Shown here: positions 5,621 through 53,570 of the stretch, piece after piece
Layout: every line of letters starts with the position of its first letter
How positions within the stretch are numbered: position 1 is the stretch's first letter
From: Polyangia bacterium
GTDB taxonomy: Bacteria; Myxococcota_A; Polyangia; Fen-1088
Length of the DNA: 64,000 bases
NCBI GenBank assembly: GCA_035696125.1
Contig: DASRQZ010000213.1
Location: forward strand, 59,048-123,047
Reading direction: 5' to 3'
The notes under the pieces: generated by a model
What the model was told of the DNA's origin: nothing
The model's database searches: none
The model's input: only the letters and a program-made list of their open reading frames with translations
Made by a program: the position numbers and the translations under genes

Positions 5621-6966
5621 CCCCGCCAGCCGGGAAGGAAGAGCCGGTGGCTCGCCGCGCGCTCGCTGATCGGTAGCAGGGACCACACTGGCGCGTAGAA
5701 CGCGGCCACGATCGACACCACCGCCACGAACGCGACCGTCACCAGAGGCCAGCGCCGGCCGACGAACGCAGCGAACCCGGCCAACAGCACCACGTCGGCC
5801 ACGTAGGCCGGCAGGAAGTGATATATGTACGAGTCGCGGTGAGTCATCACCCACGGCGCCAGGAAGGCGATCGCCGCCGACAGCACCAGCACCACGCTGG
5901 GTCCGTTGGCCGCGACGAATCCGACCAGGCCCAGGCCGCGCCACCCGAGCGGCAACGTTCCGAGCGCTGCCTCTGGCGCTGACGCCGTCGTCGGCTCGAG
6001 CGCCAGGGTGGCGCCAAGGCCCCGCCAGATCACCGCCACCGTGGCCGACAGGGCGACCGCCATCGCCGGCCACCAGACAGCCAGGTTGCCCAGGCTGCTC
6101 ACCAGCCGGACCTGCAGACCGCCGTCCAGACTGGCGAGCGGCAGCACCCGCGCCGGCAGTACCCAGGTCGGCCACCCCGACACCCACGAGTTTTTCATAT
6201 CCGTCGCGCCGCTGTGCGCGCGCAGGAGGCGCAGCGTCTCGGCCACCACCGCGGCCGGCCCCGCTCCGTGGTGGCCGGCGATGCGCAGCCCGATGCTGAA
6301 CAGGATCACGTAGAACGCCGCTGCCACCGCCAGCAGCAGCGCCGCCAGCGCCAGCCGGCGCCGCGCCGGCTGCCGCGCCATGGCCAGCGCCAGCAGCAGC
6401 GGCACCGCGACCGCCCCGCCGCTGAACTTGATGTTGGCTGCCGCGCCGGTCAGCATGCCCGCCCCCACCGCCGTCGCAGCGCCAGCACGCGCCGTCGCCA
6501 GTAGCAGCGCCCCGGCCGCGCACGCCGCCAGCTGACCGTCGAGCAGCGCCACCCGCGAATAGCTTGCCAGGAACCCGTCGCCGGCTATCAACGCCGCCGC
6601 CAGCCAGCCGGCGCGCGCGTCGCGGAACAGCCGGCTGGCGGCCAGGCTGCCCAGCAGCAAGGTCAGCGCGCCCGCCACCTGCGCCGGCATCCGCCAGGCG
6701 ATGGGCCCGTCGCCCAGCGCCAGGATCGACACCGCAATGAACAGCTTGCCCAGCGGCGGGTGGTCATTCAGGTCGGATTGTCCGGACACGTAGCGGCGCG
6801 CGTTGTCGACGAAGTGATGCTCATCGAACAGGTAGGTCGACGGCGTGGCGAAGTGGTGGATGCGGATCGCGGCCCCCGCGACCACCAGCACCAGCACCAG
6901 CAGCCCGAGCGGCGTCACCGGCGACGCCAGTGCCGTGCGCCAGCCGGGCCCGGTTCTCTCGGTCAT
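5617..6966 (-). CDS. Membrane glycosyltransferase, PMT/ArnT-like (GT39/GT83 fold)
   Basis: Multi-TM protein with DEHHFVDNARRY...GQSDLNDHPPLGKL motif region typical of dolichyl/undecaprenyl-phosphate-sugar-dependent mannosyltransferases. Confidence 0.7.
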   Translation of the reverse strand: MTERTGPGWRTALASPVTPLGLLVLVLVVAGAAIRIHHFATPSTYLFDEHHFVDNARRYVSGQSDLNDHPPLGKLFIAVSILALGDGPIAWRMPAQVAGALTLLLGSLAASRLFRDARAGWLAAALIAGDGFLASYSRVALLDGQLAACAAGALLLATARAGAATAVGAGMLTGAAANIKFSGGAVAVPLLLALAMARQPARRRLALAALLLAVAAAFYVILFSIGLRIAGHHGAGPAAVVAETLRLLRAHSGATDMKNSWVSGWPTWVLPARVLPLASLDGGLQVRLVSSLGNLAVWWPAMAVALSATVAVIWRGLGATLALEPTTASAPEAALGTLPLGWRGLGLVGFVAANGPSVVLVLSAAIAFLAPWVMTHRDSYIYHFLPAYVADVVLLAGFAAFVGRRWPLVTVAFVAVVSIVAAFYAPVWSLLPISERAASHRLFLPGWRG

Positions 6967-7033: not shown

Positions 7034-7069
<36 letters not shown>

Positions 7070-15241: not shown

Positions 15242-16196
<955 letters not shown>

Positions 16197-22451: not shown

Positions 22452-22463
22452 GCACCCGTCCTT

Positions 22464-22563
<100 letters not shown>

Positions 22564-22596
22564 GACGGATCGGATCCGGACAGGCTGGTTCATGTC

Positions 22597-23592: not shown

Positions 23593-23633
23593 AGCGACGG
23601 CCGGACTCGCTCTGTAACGTCCTCTCAAGGTAT

Positions 23634-23714
23634 CGCCCACGGCGACGCTGACGCCGACGCGAACGGACAGATCCGGATCCGACCGTCGGCGTCGCCGTCG
23701 GCGTCGGCGTCGGC
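23634..23714. repeat. Hairpin element: CGCCCACGGCGACGCTGACGCCGACG - loop gaacggacagatccggatccga - (GTCGGC/GTCGCC)5
   Basis: Loop homologous to the 12027-12109 element (GGACAGAyCC..GGATCC.ACCGTCGG). Confidence 0.9.
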
Positions 23715-24093
23715 GATACCAATTCAACCCTCACGAGAGGGAAAGAGGCTTGCCGCGCGCGCGCCGCCCTACTTCGCCAGCGACGGATACACCGGACACC
23801 CGCACGGGAACGGGCGCGCGTGCTCGGTGCCCTGCCCTTCTCGCGCGGGGTCGCGGCACGAATCGGCCTCCTCGCAAGACACCAGCCGATCGATGGTCAG
23901 GTTGCGCGCCGCGGCCACCGGCCTCTGGAAATGCGGACAGAAGACCAGGACTTTGAGCAGCTCCGCGCGGCGCACCCAGCCAGTAAACCATGCTCGACCG
24001 TCAGCGCGCCAGCGCGCGCACGGCTGAGCCGAGCCCCTTGCCCAGCGAGCGACCGATTCCCATATTGGAGCCACACAAAGAAGGAGGAGCGCC

Positions 24094-35863: not shown

Positions 35864-37398
35864 CGAACCCTCCCGGACAGGCCCAGCGCCAGCTTGCGGC
35901 GCAGCTCCTGGTCCTCGAAGCTATCCTCGAGGTAGTCCTGGAAGCGCGGCAGCGAGACCCGCCCATCGTTGGCGGGCGTGCCCTTGCGGAACAGGCGCGC
36001 CAGCAACCCGGCCTGACCGACCGGGTGCGGCTCGCCCGGATCGAGGCTGATGGCGGAGGTCGGGTTGGGGGCCTCCTCGACCTCGATCTTCATGGTCGGC
36101 TCGAAGGTCATCGCCACCGGGACCGCCCTGCTGGCGGGTGGCGGCGCGACCGCCAGCGGCGGCGCGCTGACCAGATCCGGCCAGGGAGTGGGAGTGGGCG
36201 CCGGCGGCGAGGCGGTCACGGCCGGCGCCCCGGCGGGCGACGTCAGCGTCGCGGTCACCATGGCATCCCAGGCGGCGTCCTCGGCCGCAGGCATCGACTC
36301 GATGATCCGGGCGGCCAGGCTCTCGACCTTCAGCTCGCTGGTGTCGGGCAGCTCCTGGAGCAGGGTGATACCTGCCTCGCTGGAGCCCAGGATCAGGCGG
36401 GTCCGCCCCACACGCGCCACCACCAGCGCCCGCTTGGGGCCCAGGCTGGCGGTCTCGAGAATCTCGATGTGCCGGGTGACCGTGCGCCGCCGGCGCGAGA
36501 AGAAGAAGGCCGCGATCGCCACCGCGAGGAAGGCCAGGCCGGCGAGCACCACGCGACCACCGCCCGCGCTGCTGGAGGCGGGCGGGTTGTTCGGCATTGC
36601 CGTCGGCGTCCGCGGGAGCGCCGCAGCCGCGGGAACGAGGGGGTTCAGCTTGGGATCGATCACGCCGACGCCGACGCTGACGCCGACGCCGGCGCCGCCG
36701 ACGACGGGAGACTGGGGCGCGACCTGGGCGGGTGAAGGAGGCCCGAACCTCAGATCACTGGCGACCTCCTTGGCGGGCGGCGCGATCGGCTTCGGGTTGG
36801 ACCCGGCCATGGGGGCGCCGGCTGTCTTCTTGGGGCCTGTGGCCTGGGCGGGCAGGTCGTCGCCGGCGTTCTCGTCGGGACCCAGCGCCAGCTTGGCCTT
36901 GAGCGCGGCGGCGTCGCTCGCCGACAGCGCCGCGGGGACCACGGTCCTGGCGACAGCGTCGGCCCGGGGCGCCGGCTTGAGCATCGCAGGTTCCTTGGCG
37001 CGCGCGACGCTGGGCCGCGACCCGCCGTCACACGCGACCAGCGCGCGCAGGCCACCGGGTGATTTCTCGAACTCGACCGGACCCTGGCAGGCGCCGTCGC
37101 CAAGCGGTATCGCCAGCTCGACTCTCAGCCGGTGTCGGTGGGCGCGAATCTCCTCGGCGCCCTCGGCGACGTCGTTGTCCCAGGCTCGGTTGGCCTCGCG
37201 CACACGCGCGTCCCGCACGTACAGATAGAGGCGGCCCTCGCCCAGCGTGGCGCTCGCCGCCTCCGGGTCGATCATCGCGTCACCCTTGACGGTGATGGCG
37301 ATGCGTCCGCCCTCACGCTCGGCGCTGACCTCGGAGATGGTGACCTGGGTAACCAGCAGACCCACGGGAATCAGAAGCGCAGCACCGATCATGACCAC
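35860..37398 (-). CDS. fliO: FliO-domain protein with long N- and C-terminal extensions (512 aa)
   Basis: Starts 28 nt after the fliN stop. Central TM (LAGLAFLAVAIAAFFF) + FliO-like region (RHIEILETASLGPKRALVVARVGRTRLILGSSEAGITLLQEL). A 290-aa N-terminal region follows a signal/TM. A Pro-rich C-terminus. An internal GVGVSVGVGV stretch is encoded by a hexamer array. Confidence 0.55.
   Translation of the reverse strand: MVMIGAALLIPVGLLVTQVTISEVSAEREGGRIAITVKGDAMIDPEAASATLGEGRLYLYVRDARVREANRAWDNDVAEGAEEIRAHRHRLRVELAIPLGDGACQGPVEFEKSPGGLRALVACDGGSRPSVARAKEPAMLKPAPRADAVARTVVPAALSASDAAALKAKLALGPDENAGDDLPAQATGPKKTAGAPMAGSNPKPIAPPAKEVASDLRFGPPSPAQVAPQSPVVGGAGVGVSVGVGVIDPKLNPLVPAAAALPRTPTAMPNNPPASSSAGGGRVVLAGLAFLAVAIAAFFFSRRRRTVTRHIEILETASLGPKRALVVARVGRTRLILGSSEAGITLLQELPDTSELKVESLAARIIESMPAAEDAAWDAMVTATLTSPAGAPAVTASPPAPTPTPWPDLVSAPPLAVAPPPASRAVPVAMTFEPTMKIEVEEAPNPTSAISLDPGEPHPVGQAGLLARLFRKGTPANDGRVSLPRFQDYLEDSFEDQELRRKLALGLSGRVR
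36658..36707. repeat. In-frame hexamer array inside fliO-like CDS, encoding (GV)n
   Basis: gatCACGCCGACGCCGACGCTGACGCCGACGCC...; the same GATCACGCCGAC start as the copies at 12024 and 60121. Confidence 0.85.
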
Positions 37399-40689: not shown

Positions 40690-40859
40690 CTGACGAATCC
40701 CCGCGAATCTCGTTCGCGAGTCGGTCCGGCGCCGTCTTTCCCGTCGGCGTCGGCGTCGGCGTCACCGTGGGCGACCCGAACGGCGACAGAGCCCGAATCG
40801 CCGACGCCGACGCCGACGCTGACGCCGACGGATGAATCGTATTCGTGGGGATTCGTCAG
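40690..40859. mobile_element. MITE-like non-autonomous element (170 bp) with ~19-bp TIRs and 9-10 bp TSD
   Basis: TIRs CTGACGAATCCCCGCGAAT / ATTCGTGGGGATTCGTCAG (1 mismatch); flanking direct repeat (G)GTTGATAGC at 40680-40689 and 40859-40868; core is a hexamer hairpin (GTCGGC)3-ACCGTGGGCG-loop-(GCCGAC)n. Confidence 0.65.
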
Positions 40860-41895: not shown

Positions 41896-42154
41896 TTGAG
41901 GTCGCTCCTTTTCAACTCTGGGGACGATGTGCGCCGCAGTATAGCGATCGTCTCCAGTGTGTCTAGACTTTCTGACATCCTCGCGTACTTTCCATGCGCC
42001 ATTTCGCTCATGTTTCCAAGGGGTCCGCACTCATGACCCGAGGGGCGCTAGGTCCATGCAGAACCTGACGCGGACCTGACGCACACCTATCCCCTGGGTG
42101 GTGGTACCCGGTGCGCGTCTCGATCAGGCTGCCGGGCGGAAAAAATTCCAGGAC

Positions 42155-43651
42155 CTAAGTGCCGGGGCGCGCCCAGCGCAGCCGCGCGCGTCCCGCCAGC
42201 CAGACCGGCAGCTCGGCCAGGCCGCCCAGCGCGCGCCACCGACGGACGTCGGTCGCCAGCGGATGGCGCGCCAGCGTGCGCGCGGCGCGCAGGGCGCGGC
42301 GCGTCCGGAATTCCGCGTGCACTGTACGCGACAGGGCGTGATAGAACGCACGCGAGAATTCGCCGGGGAAGAGAGGGTCCAGATCGTTGCTTTGCTCCCA
42401 GTTACGCTTCTCCCCGAGCTGGCCGCTGACCCGGTCGTGGAACTTGGTCCCGGGCAGCGGGTAGCTGACCGAGATCCCGATCTCGTCAGGAGCCAGGTCG
42501 CGCACCAGACGCCGGGTCATCTCGATCTCGGGCCACTTCTCGCCCGGGTAGCCAAATTGCAGGAAAAATCCGATGCGAATTTTCGCGGCGCGCAGCCGCG
42601 ACACCGCGCCCTGGACCTGAGCCAGGGTGATGCCCTTGTCCATGGCATCCAGGATAGCCTGCGATCCGGACTCGACGCCCAACCAGGCCTCGGCGCAGCC
42701 GGCGCGGCGCAGGGCATCGACGTTGTCCTCGGTCATCAGATCGGCGCGCGTCTGACAGAGAAAGGGCGTCACCAGTCCCTCGGCGGCGATCTGTTCCGCG
42801 AAAGGCATCAGCCAACGCTTCTTGAGCCCGAAGATGTCGTCACAGAACCAGAGGTGGTCGGGTGCGTAGCGCGCCCGCAAGAGGCGGATCTCCTCGACCA
42901 CCTGCGCGGCCGAACGGATGTGGTAGGTGTTGCCGTAGACCGGCTTCGCGCACCAGTTGCACAGATAGGGGCAGCCCCGGGTGGTGACGACGTTGAGCGA
43001 GAAGTAGCCGTGGTGGCTCAACCAGAACTCGCGGTAGCGCGGAATGTCGACCAGGTCCCAGGCGGCGATGGCCAGGCTGTCCAGCTCCTTGAGCAGCGCG
43101 CGAGGTCCCGTGCGCCGCTGCAGGCCGAGATCCGTGAAGACCAGTCCCGGGATGTCGTCGTAGCGGATGCGCGCCGCGGCGCTGCCGCCTGTCCCGGGCG
43201 CGGGCGCGGCGCCGCGCGACATGCGCGCCAGCAGCTCGCCCATGGTGATCTCCCCCTCGCCCACCACCACGAATTCGGCGCCCGCCGCCAGATACACCTG
43301 TGGCGCGTCGGCCGCGTCGTGTCCCGAGACCACGACCCGCACCCCGCGCGCGCGCGCCTGGCGGATCATCTCCAGCGCCGCCTCGCGCATCCGGGACAGG
43401 CACATCTTGGTGAACCAGTTGAAGACGTCGTCGTAAAGGACCAGAACTTGCGGCCGCGCCCGATCGAGCGCCGCGGCAAAGCCATGCGTGTCCTCGTCCA
43501 GGGTCGGATCGTAAAGCGCGACCTGGTGTCCCAGGGAACGAAGGTGAGCCGCAGCAGTGATGGTGGCCAGCGGCGGGTAGGGCTTGCCGATGGCGAACTG
43601 CTTGGCGTCGAAACGAAGGAGGTGCCCGTGGGCGAAAAGAACTGAGCTCAT
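42155..43651 (-). CDS. B12-binding domain radical SAM protein (class B rSAM)
   Basis: N-terminal cobalamin-binding Rossmann region; CPYLCNWC (CxxxCxxC) radical SAM cluster motif. Confidence 0.85.
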   Translation of the reverse strand: MSSVLFAHGHLLRFDAKQFAIGKPYPPLATITAAAHLRSLGHQVALYDPTLDEDTHGFAAALDRARPQVLVLYDDVFNWFTKMCLSRMREAALEMIRQARARGVRVVVSGHDAADAPQVYLAAGAEFVVVGEGEITMGELLARMSRGAAPAPGTGGSAAARIRYDDIPGLVFTDLGLQRRTGPRALLKELDSLAIAAWDLVDIPRYREFWLSHHGYFSLNVVTTRGCPYLCNWCAKPVYGNTYHIRSAAQVVEEIRLLRARYAPDHLWFCDDIFGLKKRWLMPFAEQIAAEGLVTPFLCQTRADLMTEDNVDALRRAGCAEAWLGVESGSQAILDAMDKGITLAQVQGAVSRLRAAKIRIGFFLQFGYPGEKWPEIEMTRRLVRDLAPDEIGISVSYPLPGTKFHDRVSGQLGEKRNWEQSNDLDPLFPGEFSRAFYHALSRTVHAEFRTRRALRAARTLARHPLATDVRRWRALGGLAELPVWLAGRARLRWARPGT

Positions 43652-43742
43652 TTCAGGTCGACCGGTCTGGCGCGCGAAAGTCTACCTGAAGCGACTTTGG
43701 CATAGGGCCGCTTTTCACACCTGGGATAGACTGCCGCCGCCT

Positions 43743-45566
43743 GTGAACAGAGAAAGTCCCTTCGTTGCGCTGCTGCCCGCGCTGCGCTGGATCAGTCAAG
43801 CAGCCCTACTCGCGCTCTCCGTCGCCCTGCCCTTCGAGCTGGTCAGACCGGTCGCGCCGCTCGGCCCGCTGAAGCTTTCCAGCGTCGAGGTGTTCTTGTA
43901 CCTGACGGTGGGGGCCTGGTTGGCTGCGCGCTGCGTCGCCTGGTGGGCCGGACGCGGCCGGGCCGGCGCGCTCCGCCAGCCGGCGACCTGGCGCGGATTG
44001 TCGGAGGTGCACCGCGCCGCCGGACTGTGGTCGCTGGCCCTGCTGCTGTCGGCGGCGCTGGCGCCGTTCGAACGCGCGGCGGCGGTGAAGTTCGCGCTGC
44101 GCAGCGTGGGCGGCGTGATCTTCTTCGTGGCGGCGGCCGACCTGCTGGATTCGCGGCGCGCGATCGGGCGCGCGCTGGCCGCTCTGGGCGCGGGCGCGGT
44201 GCTGGCGTCACTGCTCATGGTGCTCGAGCTGGTGATCGGCGCCGGCTTCGCCCTGCTGCTGCGTCCCTTCCACGCCCAGACCTTCGGCGTCCTCGGCCTG
44301 GCACGCGCGAGCGGTCCGTTCCAGTATCCCAACATCGCCACCATGTACCTGGAGGCGGTGCTGCCGGCGCTGGTGGCCACCGGCGTGGTCGCCGCCGGCG
44401 AGTGGGAGTCGCGGCTCGGCTGGCGCGTGCTGGCCGTGACCGCGCTGGCCGCGCTGTCGCTCGTGACCGCGATCGTGCTCGCCGCCAGCCGTGCGGGTCT
44501 GATCACCGCGATGGTGGTCCTGCTCGGCCTGGCGGTGATGGCGCGCGACCTGCGGGTGCTGCGCCGGCTCTCGATCGGCCTGGCGGCGGCGCTGGTGATC
44601 GTGGTGTTGATCGCGCAAGGGGTGAGTCCCCTGCTGGCCCTGCGCCTGCGCTTCTGGCACCAGGGCGGCTGGTACAGCTCGGGCATCGATCCAGTGCCCG
44701 ACGCCGAGCCTTTGCCGTCGGAGCTGCCGGTCGGGGGCCGGACCCAGGTCCGGCTCTCGATCCACAACACCGGGGTCCTGCCCTGGCCAGCGGCGGGGGA
44801 CAAGCCGGTCAAGCTCAGCTATCACTGGATGAGCGAAGACGCCGAGCAACTGATCGTCCTCGACGGCGAGCGTACCGAGCTGCCACGTGACCTGCCCCCG
44901 GGAGACCGGGCCGAGGTGGTGGCGACGGTGACGGCGCCGGCGCGCGCCGGGCGCTACCTTTTATGGTGGGACCTGGTCCACGAGAACGTGACCTGGTTCA
45001 GCGACACCGGCGATCCCGGGCAGTGGCAGGCGGTGACCGTCGGCGCGCCCACGGCGGCGCGCAAGGGCAAGGGCCGCTCCGCGCGCAGAATGCTGAACGA
45101 CAACTCGTTCAACGAGTTCTCGCGTATCGCGCTGTGGAGCGCCGCCGCGCGCGCCTTCCGCGATCACCCGATCCTCGGGCTCGGCCCCGACAATTTCCGG
45201 CATGTCTACGGACGATACCTGGGCCGGGTGGGCACCGACGAGCGGCTGCACGCCAACAACTTTTACGTCGAGATCATGGCGACCATGGGCATGCTCGGCG
45301 TGCTGGCGCTGGTCACGCTCATGGTGGCGCTGGCGCGCACCGCGCGTCGCGCGGTGGAAGGGCGCGGCGGCCGCACGCTGAGCCTCGGGGTCACCGCGGG
45401 CCTGGCCGCCTACTTCATCCACGGCACCCTCGACTACTTTCTGGAGTTCACGCCCACCTACGTTCTGTTCTGGTTGCTGTGCGGCGCGCTGGCCGCGCTC
45501 GCGCGTCAAGCGGCGCGCGAACCCGGCGCCCAGCGGGGCGTGCGCGGCGGCGGGGCCTTCCGGTGA
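43743..45566 (+). CDS. O-antigen ligase/Wzy-like polymerase family membrane protein with large inserted beta-rich periplasmic domain
   Basis: Multiple TM helices and a Wzy_C-like loop (ANNFYVEIMATMG). Likely GTG start at 43743. The insert is ~150 aa (VRLSIHNTGVLPW...RYLLWWDL). Confidence 0.65.
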   Translation: MNRESPFVALLPALRWISQAALLALSVALPFELVRPVAPLGPLKLSSVEVFLYLTVGAWLAARCVAWWAGRGRAGALRQPATWRGLSEVHRAAGLWSLALLLSAALAPFERAAAVKFALRSVGGVIFFVAAADLLDSRRAIGRALAALGAGAVLASLLMVLELVIGAGFALLLRPFHAQTFGVLGLARASGPFQYPNIATMYLEAVLPALVATGVVAAGEWESRLGWRVLAVTALAALSLVTAIVLAASRAGLITAMVVLLGLAVMARDLRVLRRLSIGLAAALVIVVLIAQGVSPLLALRLRFWHQGGWYSSGIDPVPDAEPLPSELPVGGRTQVRLSIHNTGVLPWPAAGDKPVKLSYHWMSEDAEQLIVLDGERTELPRDLPPGDRAEVVATVTAPARAGRYLLWWDLVHENVTWFSDTGDPGQWQAVTVGAPTAARKGKGRSARRMLNDNSFNEFSRIALWSAAARAFRDHPILGLGPDNFRHVYGRYLGRVGTDERLHANNFYVEIMATMGMLGVLALVTLMVALARTARRAVEGRGGRTLSLGVTAGLAAYFIHGTLDYFLEFTPTYVLFWLLCGALAALARQAAREPGAQRGVRGGGAFR

Positions 45567-46915
45567 CCCGCGATCGATCGATCGAGCAGGTGATCCTGAT
45601 CGAGGATGTGCTCCTGATGATCGCGGCGCTGCCGCTGGCGCACCTGGTGCACGCTCGGCTGGTGGGCGCCGTCCCTGGCCTCAAGCCCCCGGTCGAGGCG
45701 CGCGAGTATGCTTATCTCTTGCTGCTGTTCCTGCCCACCTGGGTGATCGCGGCGGAGCGCATCGGCATCCATCTGCACCAGAACCTGACCGGGCCGCGCA
45801 CCGAAACCATCCGGCTGGTGCTGAAGACCCAGATGTGGGGCGTGGCGGTGATAGCGGTCATCCTGGTGGCGGCGCAGACCGCGCTCAACCGATCGTTGAT
45901 CGCCATCTTCATGGTGCTGTCGACGGTGATTCTGCTGATCGCCAAGGCGGTGCAGCGCCGGTGGGTGATCCGCCACCTGGGCGGGTCGCGCGCCCTGCTG
46001 GTCGGCGAAGCCTCCGACGATCTGGCGTCCGAGATGCAGCGCCTGCGCGGGCGCCGTATCGACCGCTGTCAGAGCCTGGACCTGGCCGAGCTGGGCGCGC
46101 GCTTTCGCGCCGGTCCCATCGACGAGGTGGTGCTGGCGCCGACCTTGCCCGCCGAGCGGATCGGCGAGCTGGTCGAGCTGTGCGCCGAGGCCGGCCTGCC
46201 GGCGTTCATACCCATCGACCACGGCGGGCGCGGCGATCTCGACCTGCCGCCGCCCGCGGTCGAGGCGGTCGGACACACTCACTTCCTGGTCTACTACGGC
46301 CGCCGCACCAACTCCGCGGCGCTGCTGATCAAGGCCATGCTCGACCGCGTGCTGGCGGCGGTCTTGATCGTGGCGCTGGCGCCGCTGATCCTGGCGGTCG
46401 CCGTGCTGGTGCGCATCTTCCTCGGCCGGCCGGTGCTGTACGTCCAGCGCCGCGGCGGCCTTTACGGCCGGCCCTTCTCGATGCTCAAGTTCCGCACCAT
46501 GCGCCTGGGCGCCGAGCAGGAACGCGCCGACCTGGAGGCGCACAACGAGATGGACGGGCCGGTCTTCAAGATGGCCAACGATCCGCGGGTGACCCGGCTC
46601 GGCCGCGTCCTGCGCCGAACCAGCCTCGACGAGCTGCCCCAGCTCTTCAATGTCCTGCGCGGCCACATGAGCCTGGTCGGACCGCGGCCCCTGGTGCTGC
46701 CCGAGACCCAGGCGCTGCACGGCGGCCACCGGCGCCGGCTGGCGATGCGCCCCGGTCTGACCTGCCTGTGGCAGGTGAGCGGCCGCAACGATCTGACCTT
46801 CGACGAGTGGATGAAGCTGGACCTCGAGTACATCGACACCTGGTCGCTGGCGCTCGACTTCGCGATCCTGCTGCGCACGCTGCCGGCCATCGTCACCGGG
46901 CGCGGGGCGCGCTGA
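45563..46915 (+). CDS. Polyprenyl-phosphate sugar (glycosyl-1-phosphate) transferase, WbaP/EpsZ-like
   Basis: C-terminal bacterial sugar transferase domain (PVLYVQRRGGLYGRPFSMLKFRTM...LPQLFNVLRGHMSLVGPRP). GTG start overlaps the upstream stop (GTGA). The upstream 200 aa of the track ORF are noise. Confidence 0.8.
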   Translation: MTRDRSIEQVILIEDVLLMIAALPLAHLVHARLVGAVPGLKPPVEAREYAYLLLLFLPTWVIAAERIGIHLHQNLTGPRTETIRLVLKTQMWGVAVIAVILVAAQTALNRSLIAIFMVLSTVILLIAKAVQRRWVIRHLGGSRALLVGEASDDLASEMQRLRGRRIDRCQSLDLAELGARFRAGPIDEVVLAPTLPAERIGELVELCAEAGLPAFIPIDHGGRGDLDLPPPAVEAVGHTHFLVYYGRRTNSAALLIKAMLDRVLAAVLIVALAPLILAVAVLVRIFLGRPVLYVQRRGGLYGRPFSMLKFRTMRLGAEQERADLEAHNEMDGPVFKMANDPRVTRLGRVLRRTSLDELPQLFNVLRGHMSLVGPRPLVLPETQALHGGHRRRLAMRPGLTCLWQVSGRNDLTFDEWMKLDLEYIDTWSLALDFAILLRTLPAIVTGRGAR

Positions 46916-47759
46916 TTCCGGCTTCGCTCTCTCCGTCGTGGGGCGGGCGGGTCGGGGGAGGTGGGGTGTTCCTCTTGCGGGGACGCGGCCCTTACGCCGC
47001 CGGGCGGGCGGTGAACTCTCGATGACTACTTTTGGTGTCTCCGAGCTCTTCCCCTCCTTCACCTTGAACGCCGGCGGCACGGGGGCCGCTCCGATCGTCG
47101 GCTGGCAACCGGCCTGCGGACAGGCCGGTGCGCCTCCTCAGGCCCCGCAAGAGGAACACCCCACCTCCCCCACCCCGCCCTCAACCCCACCACTACGTTC
47201 ACTGCGCCTGAACGCTGCAAACGTCGGACCGGATCGGATCGATCGGATCGGATCGGATCAGATCGGATCGGATCGGATCGGATCGGATCAGATCAGATCT
47301 GAGTCCGATTTGATCCAGTCCGATTTGATCCAGTCCGATTGATCCAGTCCGATTTGATCCAGTCCGATCTGATCCGGTCCGATCTGATCTGATCCGGTCC
47401 GATCTGATCCGGTCCGATCTGATCTGATCCGGTCTGGATCCGATCCGACGTCTGCGGCGTGCAGGCGCAGTGAACGTAGTGGTGGGGTTGAGGGGGGCTT
47501 GGGGGAGGTGGGGTGTTGTGCCCGAGGGGGCTAAGCGGGCGCTCCTGCCTGTCCGCAGGCAGGATGCCAGCCCGCCGTCGCAGGCGCCCCCGTGCCGCCG
47601 GCGTTCATGGTCAAGGAAGGGGAAGAGCTCGGAGACACCAAAAGCAGTCATCGAGAGTTCACCCCCCGCCCGGCGGCGTAAGGGCGCCGACCCGCGGGCG
47701 CAATACCCCACCTCCCCCAAGCCCCCCGCCCCACAACGGAGAGAGTGGAGCCGCAATCA
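46913..47759. repeat. ~850-bp imperfect palindrome: two ~315-bp inverted arms flanking a ~215-bp GATC-based microsatellite core
   Basis: Left arm 46913-47228 and right arm 47446-47759 are reverse complements at roughly 90% identity by eye over the compared stretches (e.g. ggtgaactctcgatgactacttttggtgtctccgagctcttcccc vs its mirror). The core is (GGATC/GATCG)n, then 15-mer repeats gatccagtccgattt / gatccggtccgatct. Confidence 0.85.
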
Positions 47760-47791
47760 GGAGCCATCGCCGCGCCCCCCGCGCGGCTCTC

Positions 47792-50278
<2,487 letters not shown>

Positions 50279-53444: not shown

Positions 53445-53570
53445 CCGTCGGCGTCGGCGTCGGCGTCAGCGTGGGCGACCGGAAGCGGGAACGGAGCCGG
53501 AATCGCCGACGCCGACGCCGACGCCGACGCTGACGCCGACGGATCGATCGCATTCGTGGGATTCATCGGC
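53445..53570. repeat. Degenerate copy of the MITE-like hexamer hairpin element
   Basis: (GTCGGC)3-GTCAGCGTGGGCG-loop-(GCCGAC)5. Right end GGATCGATCGCATTCGTGGGATTCATC is homologous to the 40690-40859 right TIR. No clear TSD. Confidence 0.7.

Follow-up and report, generated by a model that had tools for sequence, protein, structure and literature searches.

Results and discussion

A dispersed family of palindromic elements

We analyzed a 64,000-nucleotide stretch of DNA from a Polyangia bacterium (GenBank assembly GCA_035696125.1, contig DASRQZ010000213.1, positions 59,048 to 123,047 of the forward strand; this whole stretch is referred to as the window, and positions are given in its coordinates), and within it an 845-bp palindrome at 46914-47758 that consists of two inverted arms of about 325 bp around a GATC-rich core of about 200-225 bp. 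This locus is probably one copy of a rare, non-coding, non-autonomous family of palindromic repeats in high-GC soil bacteria, similar to foldback elements and to miniature inverted-repeat transposable elements (MITEs); the host of the window copy is a Polyangia metagenome-assembled genome (MAG). The element is most likely selfish DNA of a mobile type, neither a local duplication nor a gene.

The arm recurs in other genomic contexts. An exact 21-mer from its invariant inner block (described below) is present in five JGI metagenome contigs (L004-L008), in which homology to the arm extends over 200-470 nt at 78-93% identity; none of these contigs matches the genes that flank the element in the window. 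A sixth contig, from ENA (L013), was found through the database protein P0122, an open reading frame (ORF) running across a complete second palindrome of about 780 bp. The family is therefore represented at seven loci (the window, L004-L008 and L013), whose neighboring genes are unrelated. The arm-core-arm layout is seen in the window, L004 and L013, and the two complete copies (the window and L013, the latter with both flanks) measure approximately 0.75-0.85 kb. The six additional loci are as follows.

L004: a pair of inverted arms around a short core of hexamers; the copy lies 39 bp past the stop of an unannotated ORF that reads toward it
L005: a core interrupted by a complete IS66 operon (TnpA/TnpB/TnpC)
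L006: an arm, one loop of which has gained a double hairpin of 85 nt, adjoining a helix-turn-helix (HTH) gene
L007: two inverted arm interiors separated by an IS4 transposase
L008: a single arm with a core, part of the inner block of the other arm and a further array, all lying downstream of an AhpC/TSA-family thioredoxin-like gene
L013: a complete palindrome with the 3' end of a pyridine-nucleotide-disulphide oxidoreductase gene (Pyr_redox) on one side and the 5' end of cydA on the other

All readable outer ends begin (Y)GATTSCGGCTYCRCTCTCTCCGT, that is, (Y)GATTSCGGCT, and the sequence beyond them is unrelated from copy to copy. This outer terminus is common to the left and right arms of the window copy (W_L and W_R), L004, L005 and L006, and the right arm of L013 (L013_R) falls short of it by 1-2 nt. 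Among 185,579 species-representative genomes, an exact 20-mer taken from the arm loop (TTGGTGTCTCCGAGCTCTTC) matched only twice, both times by chance and without similarity beyond the match, in a Paenibacillus and in an Acidobacteriota MAG. Viral contigs were negative in three motif scans, one of which used a paired terminal-repeat pattern, and plasmid and phage collections returned nothing meaningful.

Position and extent of the window copy

In a blastn search of the window, the left arm (46913-47235) aligns in reverse complement with 47759-47437, at 84.9% identity over 324 nt (E = 9e-101); a global alignment of the two arms has 277 of 326 positions identical (85%), with a few indels of 1-2 nt. 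Neither blastn with the arm nor an nhmmer arm profile found a further arm copy in the 64-kb window. A preliminary description of this DNA, made from the sequence alone, had placed a near-perfect palindrome with arms about 90% identical between convergent sugar-transferase and H+-pyrophosphatase (PPase) genes. The palindrome is where it was placed, the two genes are confirmed by Pfam and the mutually reverse-complementary arms are real, but their identity is 84-85% with indels, so that 'near-perfect' overstates it; careful alignment nevertheless keeps the arms above the 80% identity fixed beforehand as the line for giving the structure up.

We set the boundaries of the element where homology to the copies at L004, L005, L006 and L013 begins (uncertainty +/- 2 nt). 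On the left, its first two bases are the GA of the sugar-transferase stop codon TGA (46913-46915), and the right end lies 33 bp from the PPase stop (47792-47794), so that the element fills the intergenic gap, as had been proposed, on the transferase side but stops short of the PPase gene. A small GC hairpin, GCCGCGC-CCCCC-GCGCGGC (47769-47787, read off the sequence), occupies this 33-bp spacer. Arms and core together account for 100% of the element.

46914..47758, no strand: whole palindromic element, 845 bp (inverted arms; nhmmer arm profile matches 46914-47234 on + and 47758-47438 on -)
46914..47223, +: left arm from outer end to core, outer terminus GATTCCGGCTTCGCTCTCTCCGT (alignments, nhmmer)
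47224..47448, no strand: microsatellite core, (GGATC)n at 47224-47299, center AGATCT at about 47296-47301, then 15-mer units of the (GATCY GATCC RGTCC) type (Tandem Repeats Finder [TRF])
47449..47758, -: right arm, reverse complement of the left, 84-85% identical (alignments, nhmmer)
44963..46915, +: left flanking gene, bacterial sugar transferase, context only (PF02397 Bac_transf, 3.9e-63; the domain is intact up to residue 644 of 650)
47792..50278, -: gene on the right flank, a membrane pyrophosphatase, context only (PF03030 H_PPase, 7.4e-185; product 100% identical to a protein of a Polyangia MAG)

Relations among the arms

Pairwise identities among the copies in the arm matrix range from 67% to 91% (93% over the stretch shared with L007), and the comparisons that bear most directly on the origin of the palindrome are these.

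W_L and W_R (same palindrome): 84%
W_L or W_R and L005: 86%
L013_L and L013_R (same palindrome): 83%
L013_R and L005: 91%
L013_L and L004_L: 85%

The arms of one palindrome are thus no closer to each other than to arms elsewhere, which argues both against a young duplication in situ and against homogenization of the arms by gene conversion. L004 and L013, at unrelated loci, combine the two arm subtypes in the same way (one arm of the L004_L/L013_L type and one L005-like arm), suggesting that the arm-core-arm unit is what spreads. The arms are also mosaic: W_L has its outer stem and second hairpin as in L006 and L007, and its loop module as in the other group.

These relations bear on the possibility, raised in the preliminary description, that the palindrome is a unique local inverted duplication, which would have arisen by fold-back replication at the microsatellite and decayed to 85% identity. 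Self-complementary GGATC arrays would be plausible priming sites for fold-back, and the arms always face each other through an array. The arm search found homologous arms at six or more other loci with unrelated flanks, however, the two arms of the window are not each other's nearest relatives, and the palindrome stops on both sides exactly at the conserved outer termini of the family and does not run into the flanking genes; we therefore regard a local origin as very unlikely. That the structure is an artefact of MAG assembly (a chimeric fold-back or a collapsed inverted duplication) is more improbable still. The source is indeed a MAG, and contigs assembled from short reads, both of relatives and of other copies, often end within the element or directly after the PPase gene. 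Fold-back artefacts would give identical arms, however, whereas 15% of positions differ between the present arms, which also carry indels and enclose an asymmetric core, and the same architecture occurs in independent JGI and ENA assemblies, one of them complete with both flanks.

The GATC microsatellite core

The core had been described as GGATC pentamers and 15-mer repeats that are roughly palindromic, and TRF bears this out: (TCGGA)15.4 at 47224-47299 is followed by higher-order units of 15, 29 and 50 nt at 47302-47424, and an overall GATC-type array spans 47232-47448. The symmetry is only rough, the right half having diverged to 15-mers. The core contains 30 GATC sites and has a GC content of 55-57%, compared with approximately 70% around it. 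In every copy the inner end of the arm adjoins a GATC-containing array, and the arm itself terminates in ...CGGACCGGATC. Between loci the array varies in both length and unit: the spacing between inner blocks is 277 nt in the window, 225 in L013, 135 in L004 and 128 in L008, and the unit is GGATC in the window, L005, L007 and L008 and GGATCY in L004 and L013. The suggestion that the core is a site of slipped-strand length variation is accordingly supported between loci (128-277 nt; unit of 5 or 6 nt). The core of L013 includes about 110 nt of unrelated, more AT-rich sequence. Being self-complementary, GGATC(C) arrays would be prone to slippage and able to nucleate hairpins at many registers.

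Across the whole window, GATC is over-represented, with 621 sites against 355 +/- 14 in dinucleotide-preserving shuffles; 30 of the 621 lie in the core.

Insertions within copies

Some copies are interrupted by other sequences. At L005 (1-2415) a complete IS66-type unit (HTH TnpA, TnpB_IS66 and DDE_Tnp_IS66) ends ...GTTCGCCGAACGGATAC directly against the (GATCG)n array, which places the insertion in the microsatellite core of a copy. At L007 (1-1667) the space between two inverted arm interiors is exactly filled by an IS4-family transposase with 18-bp ends (AATGCCGWTCGGTTAAGC), in the order ...GGCGGCGTAAGGGC, the insertion sequence [IS], then GCCCTTACGCCGCC...; the interiors share 76% identity, a direct target repeat is absent, and neither arm has the outer half of its stem. 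We considered the IS4 of L007 as an autonomous parent of the family and rejected it, its 18-bp ends being unrelated to the arm termini. At L006 (124-208) about 85 nt comprising two perfect small hairpins are inserted in the loop of the second internal hairpin, which suggests a nested insertion of another small palindromic element.

Arm architecture and compensatory pairing

Each arm has inverted repeats of its own, of 37-38 nt and 95% (left) or 92% (right) complementary, so that the locus is a palindrome built of hairpins, a second level of symmetry not seen in the preliminary description. The predicted fold of the arm is the same on either strand: a three-way junction with two internal hairpins inside a long outer stem. 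Between this arm hairpin and the core lies a conserved block of 33 nt that stays unpaired.

46945..46982, +: left arm outer stem, 5' half, pairing with 47143-47180 (38 nt, 95% complementary; compensatory changes across copies)
47143..47180, +: left arm outer stem, 3' half (inverted-repeat search)
46988..47086, +: left arm first internal hairpin, a near-invariant 16-bp stem (46988-47003/47071-47086) around a variable loop module (helix 5: 14 pairs, 99% of cells paired)
47010..47055, +: conserved loop block GGTGAACTCTCGATGACTNCTTTTGGTGTCTCCGAGC, holding the ATG of the spurious ORFs (arm alignment)
47110..47129, +: left arm second internal hairpin, CCGGCCTG-CGGA-CAGGCCGG (arm alignment)
47178..47210, +: left inner conserved block CCCTCAACCCCACCACTACGTTCACTGCGCCTG, between arm hairpin and core (all 33 nt the same in the two arms; hardly any variation among the nine arms)
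47462..47494, -: right inner conserved block (alignment)
47492..47528, -: right arm outer stem, core-proximal half, pairing with 47691-47727 (37 nt, 92% complementary)
47691..47727, -: right arm outer stem, outer half (inverted-repeat search)

The loop module of the first internal hairpin occurs among the copies as variants A, B and C. Its conserved block at 47010-47055 is near-identical in W_L, W_R, L004, L005, L013_L and L013_R, is more diverged in L008p, and is exchanged for other sequence in the variant-B arms, L006 and L007. The second internal hairpin exists in three compensated versions, the form given above being replaced by CCTGCCTG/CAGGCAGG in W_R and L008 and by CCGGGCTG/CAGCCCGG in L004, L005 and L013_L; the outer stem is compensated similarly (GAGGTGGGG/CCCCACCTC versus GAGCGGGGG/CCCCCGCTC versus GAGGGCGGG/CCCGCCCTC).

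Covariation was evaluated on an alignment of seven arms (A1, made before L013 was found), for which RNAalifold predicts 90 pairs. In this alignment 93.1% of paired cells are complementary, compared with 47-53% when partners are slid by 1-3 columns, and 14 pairs are changed on both sides, compared with 3-5 in the slid controls and 8.5 +/- 1.7 after column shuffling (0 of 500 shuffles reach 14). The pairing of the arms thus appears to be kept by compensatory changes, for which a comparison of seven to nine related sequences is supportive, not proof. G.U and A.C each occur at 13 pair positions in the seven arms; the larger number of G.U cells (37 versus 17 A.C) traces to two inherited U.G pairs. 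Both strands fold well, with a slight advantage for the opposite strand in each of the seven arms. The pairing shows no clear strand preference, which may fit a hairpin acting at the level of DNA, or on either strand, better than an RNA gene on one strand.

The predicted folds are very stable. Each arm as RNA reaches about -192 kcal/mol (z about -10), and the whole 845 nt as single-stranded DNA is predicted to form one giant hairpin (-411 kcal/mol, z = -39). The earlier idea that the palindrome could extrude as a cruciform therefore stands in part: the hairpin potential is very strong, but a full cruciform in duplex DNA is energetically unlikely because the arms mismatch at 15% of positions. 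Local extrusion of the core or of the arm stems is plausible.

The symmetric conservation of pairing also fits a cis-acting DNA site of the host, in which array and hairpins would be bound by protein or extruded in the service of chromosome organization or of the management of replication forks and transcription collisions between convergent genes. Such a site would account for the array being kept in every copy, in a window rich in GATC, and the self-complementary core has the lowest GC content of the region, which would favor nucleation of extrusion. On the other hand, an array period that is 5 nt or 6 nt depending on the copy, together with the unrelated stretch of about 110 nt in the L013 core, leaves no fixed phasing for protein binding; close relatives are without the element at this locus; the L013 copy is not between convergent genes; and the arm mismatch just noted argues against a full duplex cruciform. 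We consider a host site of this kind quite unlikely.

Mirrored reading frames and the search for a transcript

Two mirrored small ORFs sharing the peptide RRRAGGELSMT(T/A)FGVSELFP had been pointed out in the palindrome, and both the ORFs and the peptide do exist.

46938..47342, +: spurious 134-aa ORF over left arm and core (no Pfam match)
47199..47756, -: spurious 185-aa ORF over right arm and core (no Pfam match; relatives only over other copies)

Their reality as genes is another matter. A 1-nt indel puts the two arms in different frames about 11 residues past the Met, the tails of both ORFs are translated microsatellite, and neither has a Pfam domain. When translations of the arm in all frames were compared with 5.8 billion proteins, there were two matches (P0121 and P0122), both of them ORFs over other copies of the element; one database ORF reads one arm forward and the other arm backward. 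Because the frames shift between the arms and the homologs are limited to other copies, we conclude that these ORFs are not genes. That they encode real small proteins (for example, as a duplicated peptide gene) would agree with a GGTGA preceding the ATG and with the first eight or so codons, MT(T/A)FGVSE, being kept in most copies, but this is almost certainly not the case given the split frames, the microsatellite tails, the lack of a Pfam domain and the replacement of the ATG block in the variant-B arms of L006 and L007.

Searches of the DNA for a transcript or its signals were negative. Rfam 15 has no match at gathering score in the whole window (in permissive mode, only plant miRNA hairpin models match, at about half their thresholds), a scan of the window for tRNA and tmRNA found none, and a consensus scan found no sigma-70-like promoter inside the element. 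No canonical terminator (hairpin plus T-tract) was found within 46914-47758, the two matches of that scan both lying inside the PPase gene. The bidirectional termination proposed in the preliminary description is no more than a possible role.

The arms might instead belong to a structured RNA family, transcribed as part of a 3' untranslated region or as a small RNA of its own and acting as a terminator, a block to exonucleases or a regulator, so that the palindrome would be merely two RNA genes facing each other. The strong predicted folds with covariation would be expected of such a family, as would unpaired blocks that are nearly invariant while the copies are otherwise 67-91% identical. The placement of several copies is also suggestive: the window and L004 copies have their outer end 0-39 bp past the stop of a gene reading into the arm, the diverged left end of L013 begins no more than about 30 bp from a stop, and the L008 array lies about 330 bp downstream of a gene. 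Against this stand the Rfam result, in which plant miRNA hairpins below threshold are the only matches, the lack of a sigma-70-like promoter or of a hairpin with T-tract in the element, and the lack of a clear strand asymmetry (13 G.U versus 13 A.C pair positions, and both strands folding about equally well). In addition, the loop module is swapped wholesale in L006 and L007, 85 nt are inserted in a hairpin loop of L006, ISs are tolerated inside copies, and relatives do without the element at this locus. On balance we find an RNA family unlikely. A position between convergent genes is in any case not a property of the family: the L013 copy lies between the 3' end of one gene and the 5' end of cydA.

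History of the locus

The orthologous locus was compared in six relatives: L003, L009, L010/L011 (one sequence from two sources), L012, L014 and L015. In relatives whose PPase is 89-94% identical, the order ExbB-ExbD-ExbD-PPase is kept upstream in all, and what lies downstream of the PPase gene differs.

L003, L010/L011 and L012: a membrane protein of 263-267 aa
L009: a GH11 gene
L014: unrelated sequence
L015: another convergent gene, 83 bp away

Arm homology is absent from the loci of the relatives by blastn, and the nhmmer arm profile adds no copies at L003 and L009-L012, nor, in a separate check of their tails, at L014 and L015, which are the closest two. Convergent gaps in the relatives are 11-83 bp. 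The palindrome thus lies exactly where synteny breaks, with the conserved ExbBD-PPase block on one side and a polysaccharide cluster (Wzy_C, Bac_transf) on the other, and comparison of these loci indicates that the element was gained in this lineage, at that junction. No empty site between the same two neighbors was found among the six relatives.

Several further observations concern this region. The genes to the left of the palindrome (42098-46915; Wzy_C-like and Bac_transf) are not downstream of PPase in any relative examined. In the closest relative, P0002 (JGI 3300050046; 95% identical PPase), the contig stops 91 bp after the PPase stop, a point that in window coordinates falls inside the outer stem of the arm; this is consistent with, but not proof of, an assembly break induced by the repeat. 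At L012 (92% identical PPase) the gap after PPase (6536-6925) has a different hairpin-type element, with terminal inverted repeats of about 45 nt (GGTCCCCTCCTCCCCCGGCTGTGCGCTCAGGATTGGTCACATCTG) and no sequence similarity to the window arms. At L015 (5063-5100), about 60 nt past the PPase stop, GGGGAGGCGGGTATTGTGCTGCCCCCGCGGGGACG resembles the 5' half of the arm outer stem (73% over 34 nt, E = 0.04), which may be a coincidence in GC-rich DNA or the remnant of an element that occupied the same position.

The window also contains separate hairpins of about 90 bp formed from hexamer microsatellites, (CGTCGG)n - loop - (CCGACG)n, several of which are bordered by GATCGATC or GGATCGGATCC. They look like repetitive extragenic palindromic (REP) sequences, possibly of the CGTC-tagged kind (PMC3733652).

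12027-12105, 22460-22580, 23632-23715, 40741-40831 and 53445-53542: hexamer hairpins of about 90 bp
7035-7066, 15731-15773 and 36662-36706: simple hexamer arrays

A model for the spread of the element

As a non-autonomous mobile repeat, the arm-core-arm unit would be spread by an enzyme acting in trans that recognizes the conserved unpaired blocks, the folded arms or both, probably in single-stranded or extruded DNA; the candidate recognition blocks are 47010-47055 and 47178-47210 with their mirror copies. The core may have originated, and may change in length, through slippage, during replication, of the self-complementary GGATC motif at the end of each arm. To the host the element would be mostly passenger DNA. 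RNA reading through from either convergent gene would end in a stable hairpin (about -190 kcal/mol), which may incidentally block or stabilize transcripts; such an effect is evidently not needed, because the relatives have convergent gaps of only 11-83 bp.

Several points weigh against a mobile repeat. The family is rare in public data, and it occupies a single locus within the 64-kb window of the 129-kb source contig. There is no visible target-site duplication at either complete copy: the window flanks (...GGGGCGCGCT on the left and AGGAGCCATC... on the right, that is, GCGCGCT, the element, AGGAGCC) have no direct repeat, and L013 likewise has none. No autonomous partner or linked transposase was found on the contigs of the copies or in the plasmid and phage collections; the IS66 of L005 (ends of the GTATCCGTTCGGCGAAC type) and the IS4 of L007 (whose ends are given above) have ends unrelated to GATTSCGGCT and look like secondary insertions. 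The contigs being short, the copies may have been dispersed by recombination or by horizontal transfer of their flanks, and the near-perfect conservation of the unpaired blocks could come from an RNA or host function and not from a transposase site.

The lack of a target duplication points away from cut-and-paste transposition of the DDE type and, speculatively, toward enzymes that act on hairpin or single-stranded DNA. By analogy one might go further and propose, with low confidence, that the family is a bacterial foldback-type element that moves or replicates through hairpin DNA without the footprint of a classical transposase. The T- or Y-shaped arms with their invariant unpaired blocks would then be sites of recognition and nicking, comparable to parvoviral inverted terminal repeats (ITRs) or the ends of single-strand hairpin transposons, and the self-complementary GATC array would be the point of fold-back or resolution that creates the arm-core-arm dimer. 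If true, this would be a new class of mechanism for prokaryotic non-autonomous elements and a natural case of the persistence of a long palindrome.

Nothing here is evidence for a new gene or regulatory system, and we imply no function. The interest of the element lies elsewhere. Palindromes of several hundred base pairs are normally unstable in bacteria, as is known from work on SbcCD in Escherichia coli; the family offers a test case for genome stability, in that its layout persists at several loci while the arms diverge and the stems co-vary. For metagenome assembly and annotation, the element explains both contig breaks and spurious hypothetical proteins. That it sits at a breakpoint beside a polysaccharide cluster agrees with the view that repeats of this kind mark or promote rearrangement.

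Comparison with known systems

We found no description of this element in the literature on myxobacterial and other bacterial foldback-like repeats; the repeat family is previously undescribed, and the general phenomenon of dispersed palindromic repeats is familiar. Its closest parallels in behavior are MITEs with an internal tandem repeat (BrickBuilt) and REP doublets; in shape it recalls the eukaryotic Foldback elements. As in MITEs, there are terminal inverted repeats and dispersed copies with unrelated flanks, and there is no coding capacity; unlike typical MITEs, the two complete copies show no target-site duplication and are not under about 600 bp in size (845 and about 780 bp), and no parent IS with the same ends was found among the contigs and the plasmid and phage collections searched. 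The Correia/NEMIS, ERIC and RUP elements are about 100-250 bp long, with terminal inverted repeats of 20-30 bp and defined target duplications (for example, TA for Correia), and they form hairpins in read-through RNA near gene ends, where they can be terminators, processing sites or stabilizers. Our element resembles these Correia-type MITEs in having inverted repeats that would fold in read-through RNA and in being inserted near gene ends, and differs in that one arm alone exceeds a whole Correia element and the functional unit is the pair of arms.

Parvoviruses such as adeno-associated virus (AAV), through their ITRs, and the linear replicons of Streptomyces, through their telomeres, have T- or Y-shaped terminal hairpins, and hairpin-primed replication would give a head-to-head dimer junction. 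The arm is like these hairpins in shape only, with a long stem that encloses two small hairpins and is followed by a conserved unpaired block; unlike those systems, the element is chromosomal, with ordinary genes on both sides of both complete copies, and the symmetry at its center is imperfect. There is no sign of a replicon, nor of a gene for a Rep or terminal protein or a telomere resolvase; for resolvases this refers to the ORFs immediately around the element, the window as a whole not having been screened for them.

Foldback elements offer a likeness in that long inverted arms make up most of the element and are accompanied by tandem repeats, although here the repeats are central. The Foldback (FB) elements are eukaryotic and make target duplications, of which none is seen at the window element. 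With Drosophila FB and 'Tetris' (PMC4079207), the likeness is one of form only: very long inverted arms, tandem repeats, mostly non-autonomous members and a snap-back hairpin are shared, whereas in FB the tandem repeats build the arms and here the arms are unique sequence with the repeats between them.

REP sequences of the REP/BIME/REPIN type are described (PMC3733652) as units of 20-40 bp in high copy with GTAG or CGTC tags, some classes having no known dedicated transposase. The same source describes GC-rich hairpin repeats that lie mostly downstream of genes, between convergent or co-directional ORFs, with units often paired in opposite orientation and foldable into larger structures, in all of which our element is similar. 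It differs in being 20-40 times larger and rare, in its nested three-way-junction arm and in its microsatellite core; with arms of about 325 bp at a single locus in 64 kb, it has neither the small tagged unit nor the high copy number of REP, BIME or REPIN, and no RAYT was seen within the data examined, which are not genome-wide.

Another parallel is the BrickBuilt MITE of Porphyromonas gingivalis, which has small inverted-repeat ends and a 23-nt minisatellite and is present in 19 copies in one genome (PMC4596501). Both are non-coding, intergenic and dispersed, have inverted-repeat ends around a tandem-repeat center that varies in copy number, lie tens to hundreds of base pairs from neighboring genes and are restricted in their hosts; the element of the window differs in that its ends are structured arms of about 325 bp, its center is a self-complementary repeat of 5-6 nt and no promoter-like sites were found in it. 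A palindrome of three-way hairpins nested around a self-complementary microsatellite is an unusual architecture.

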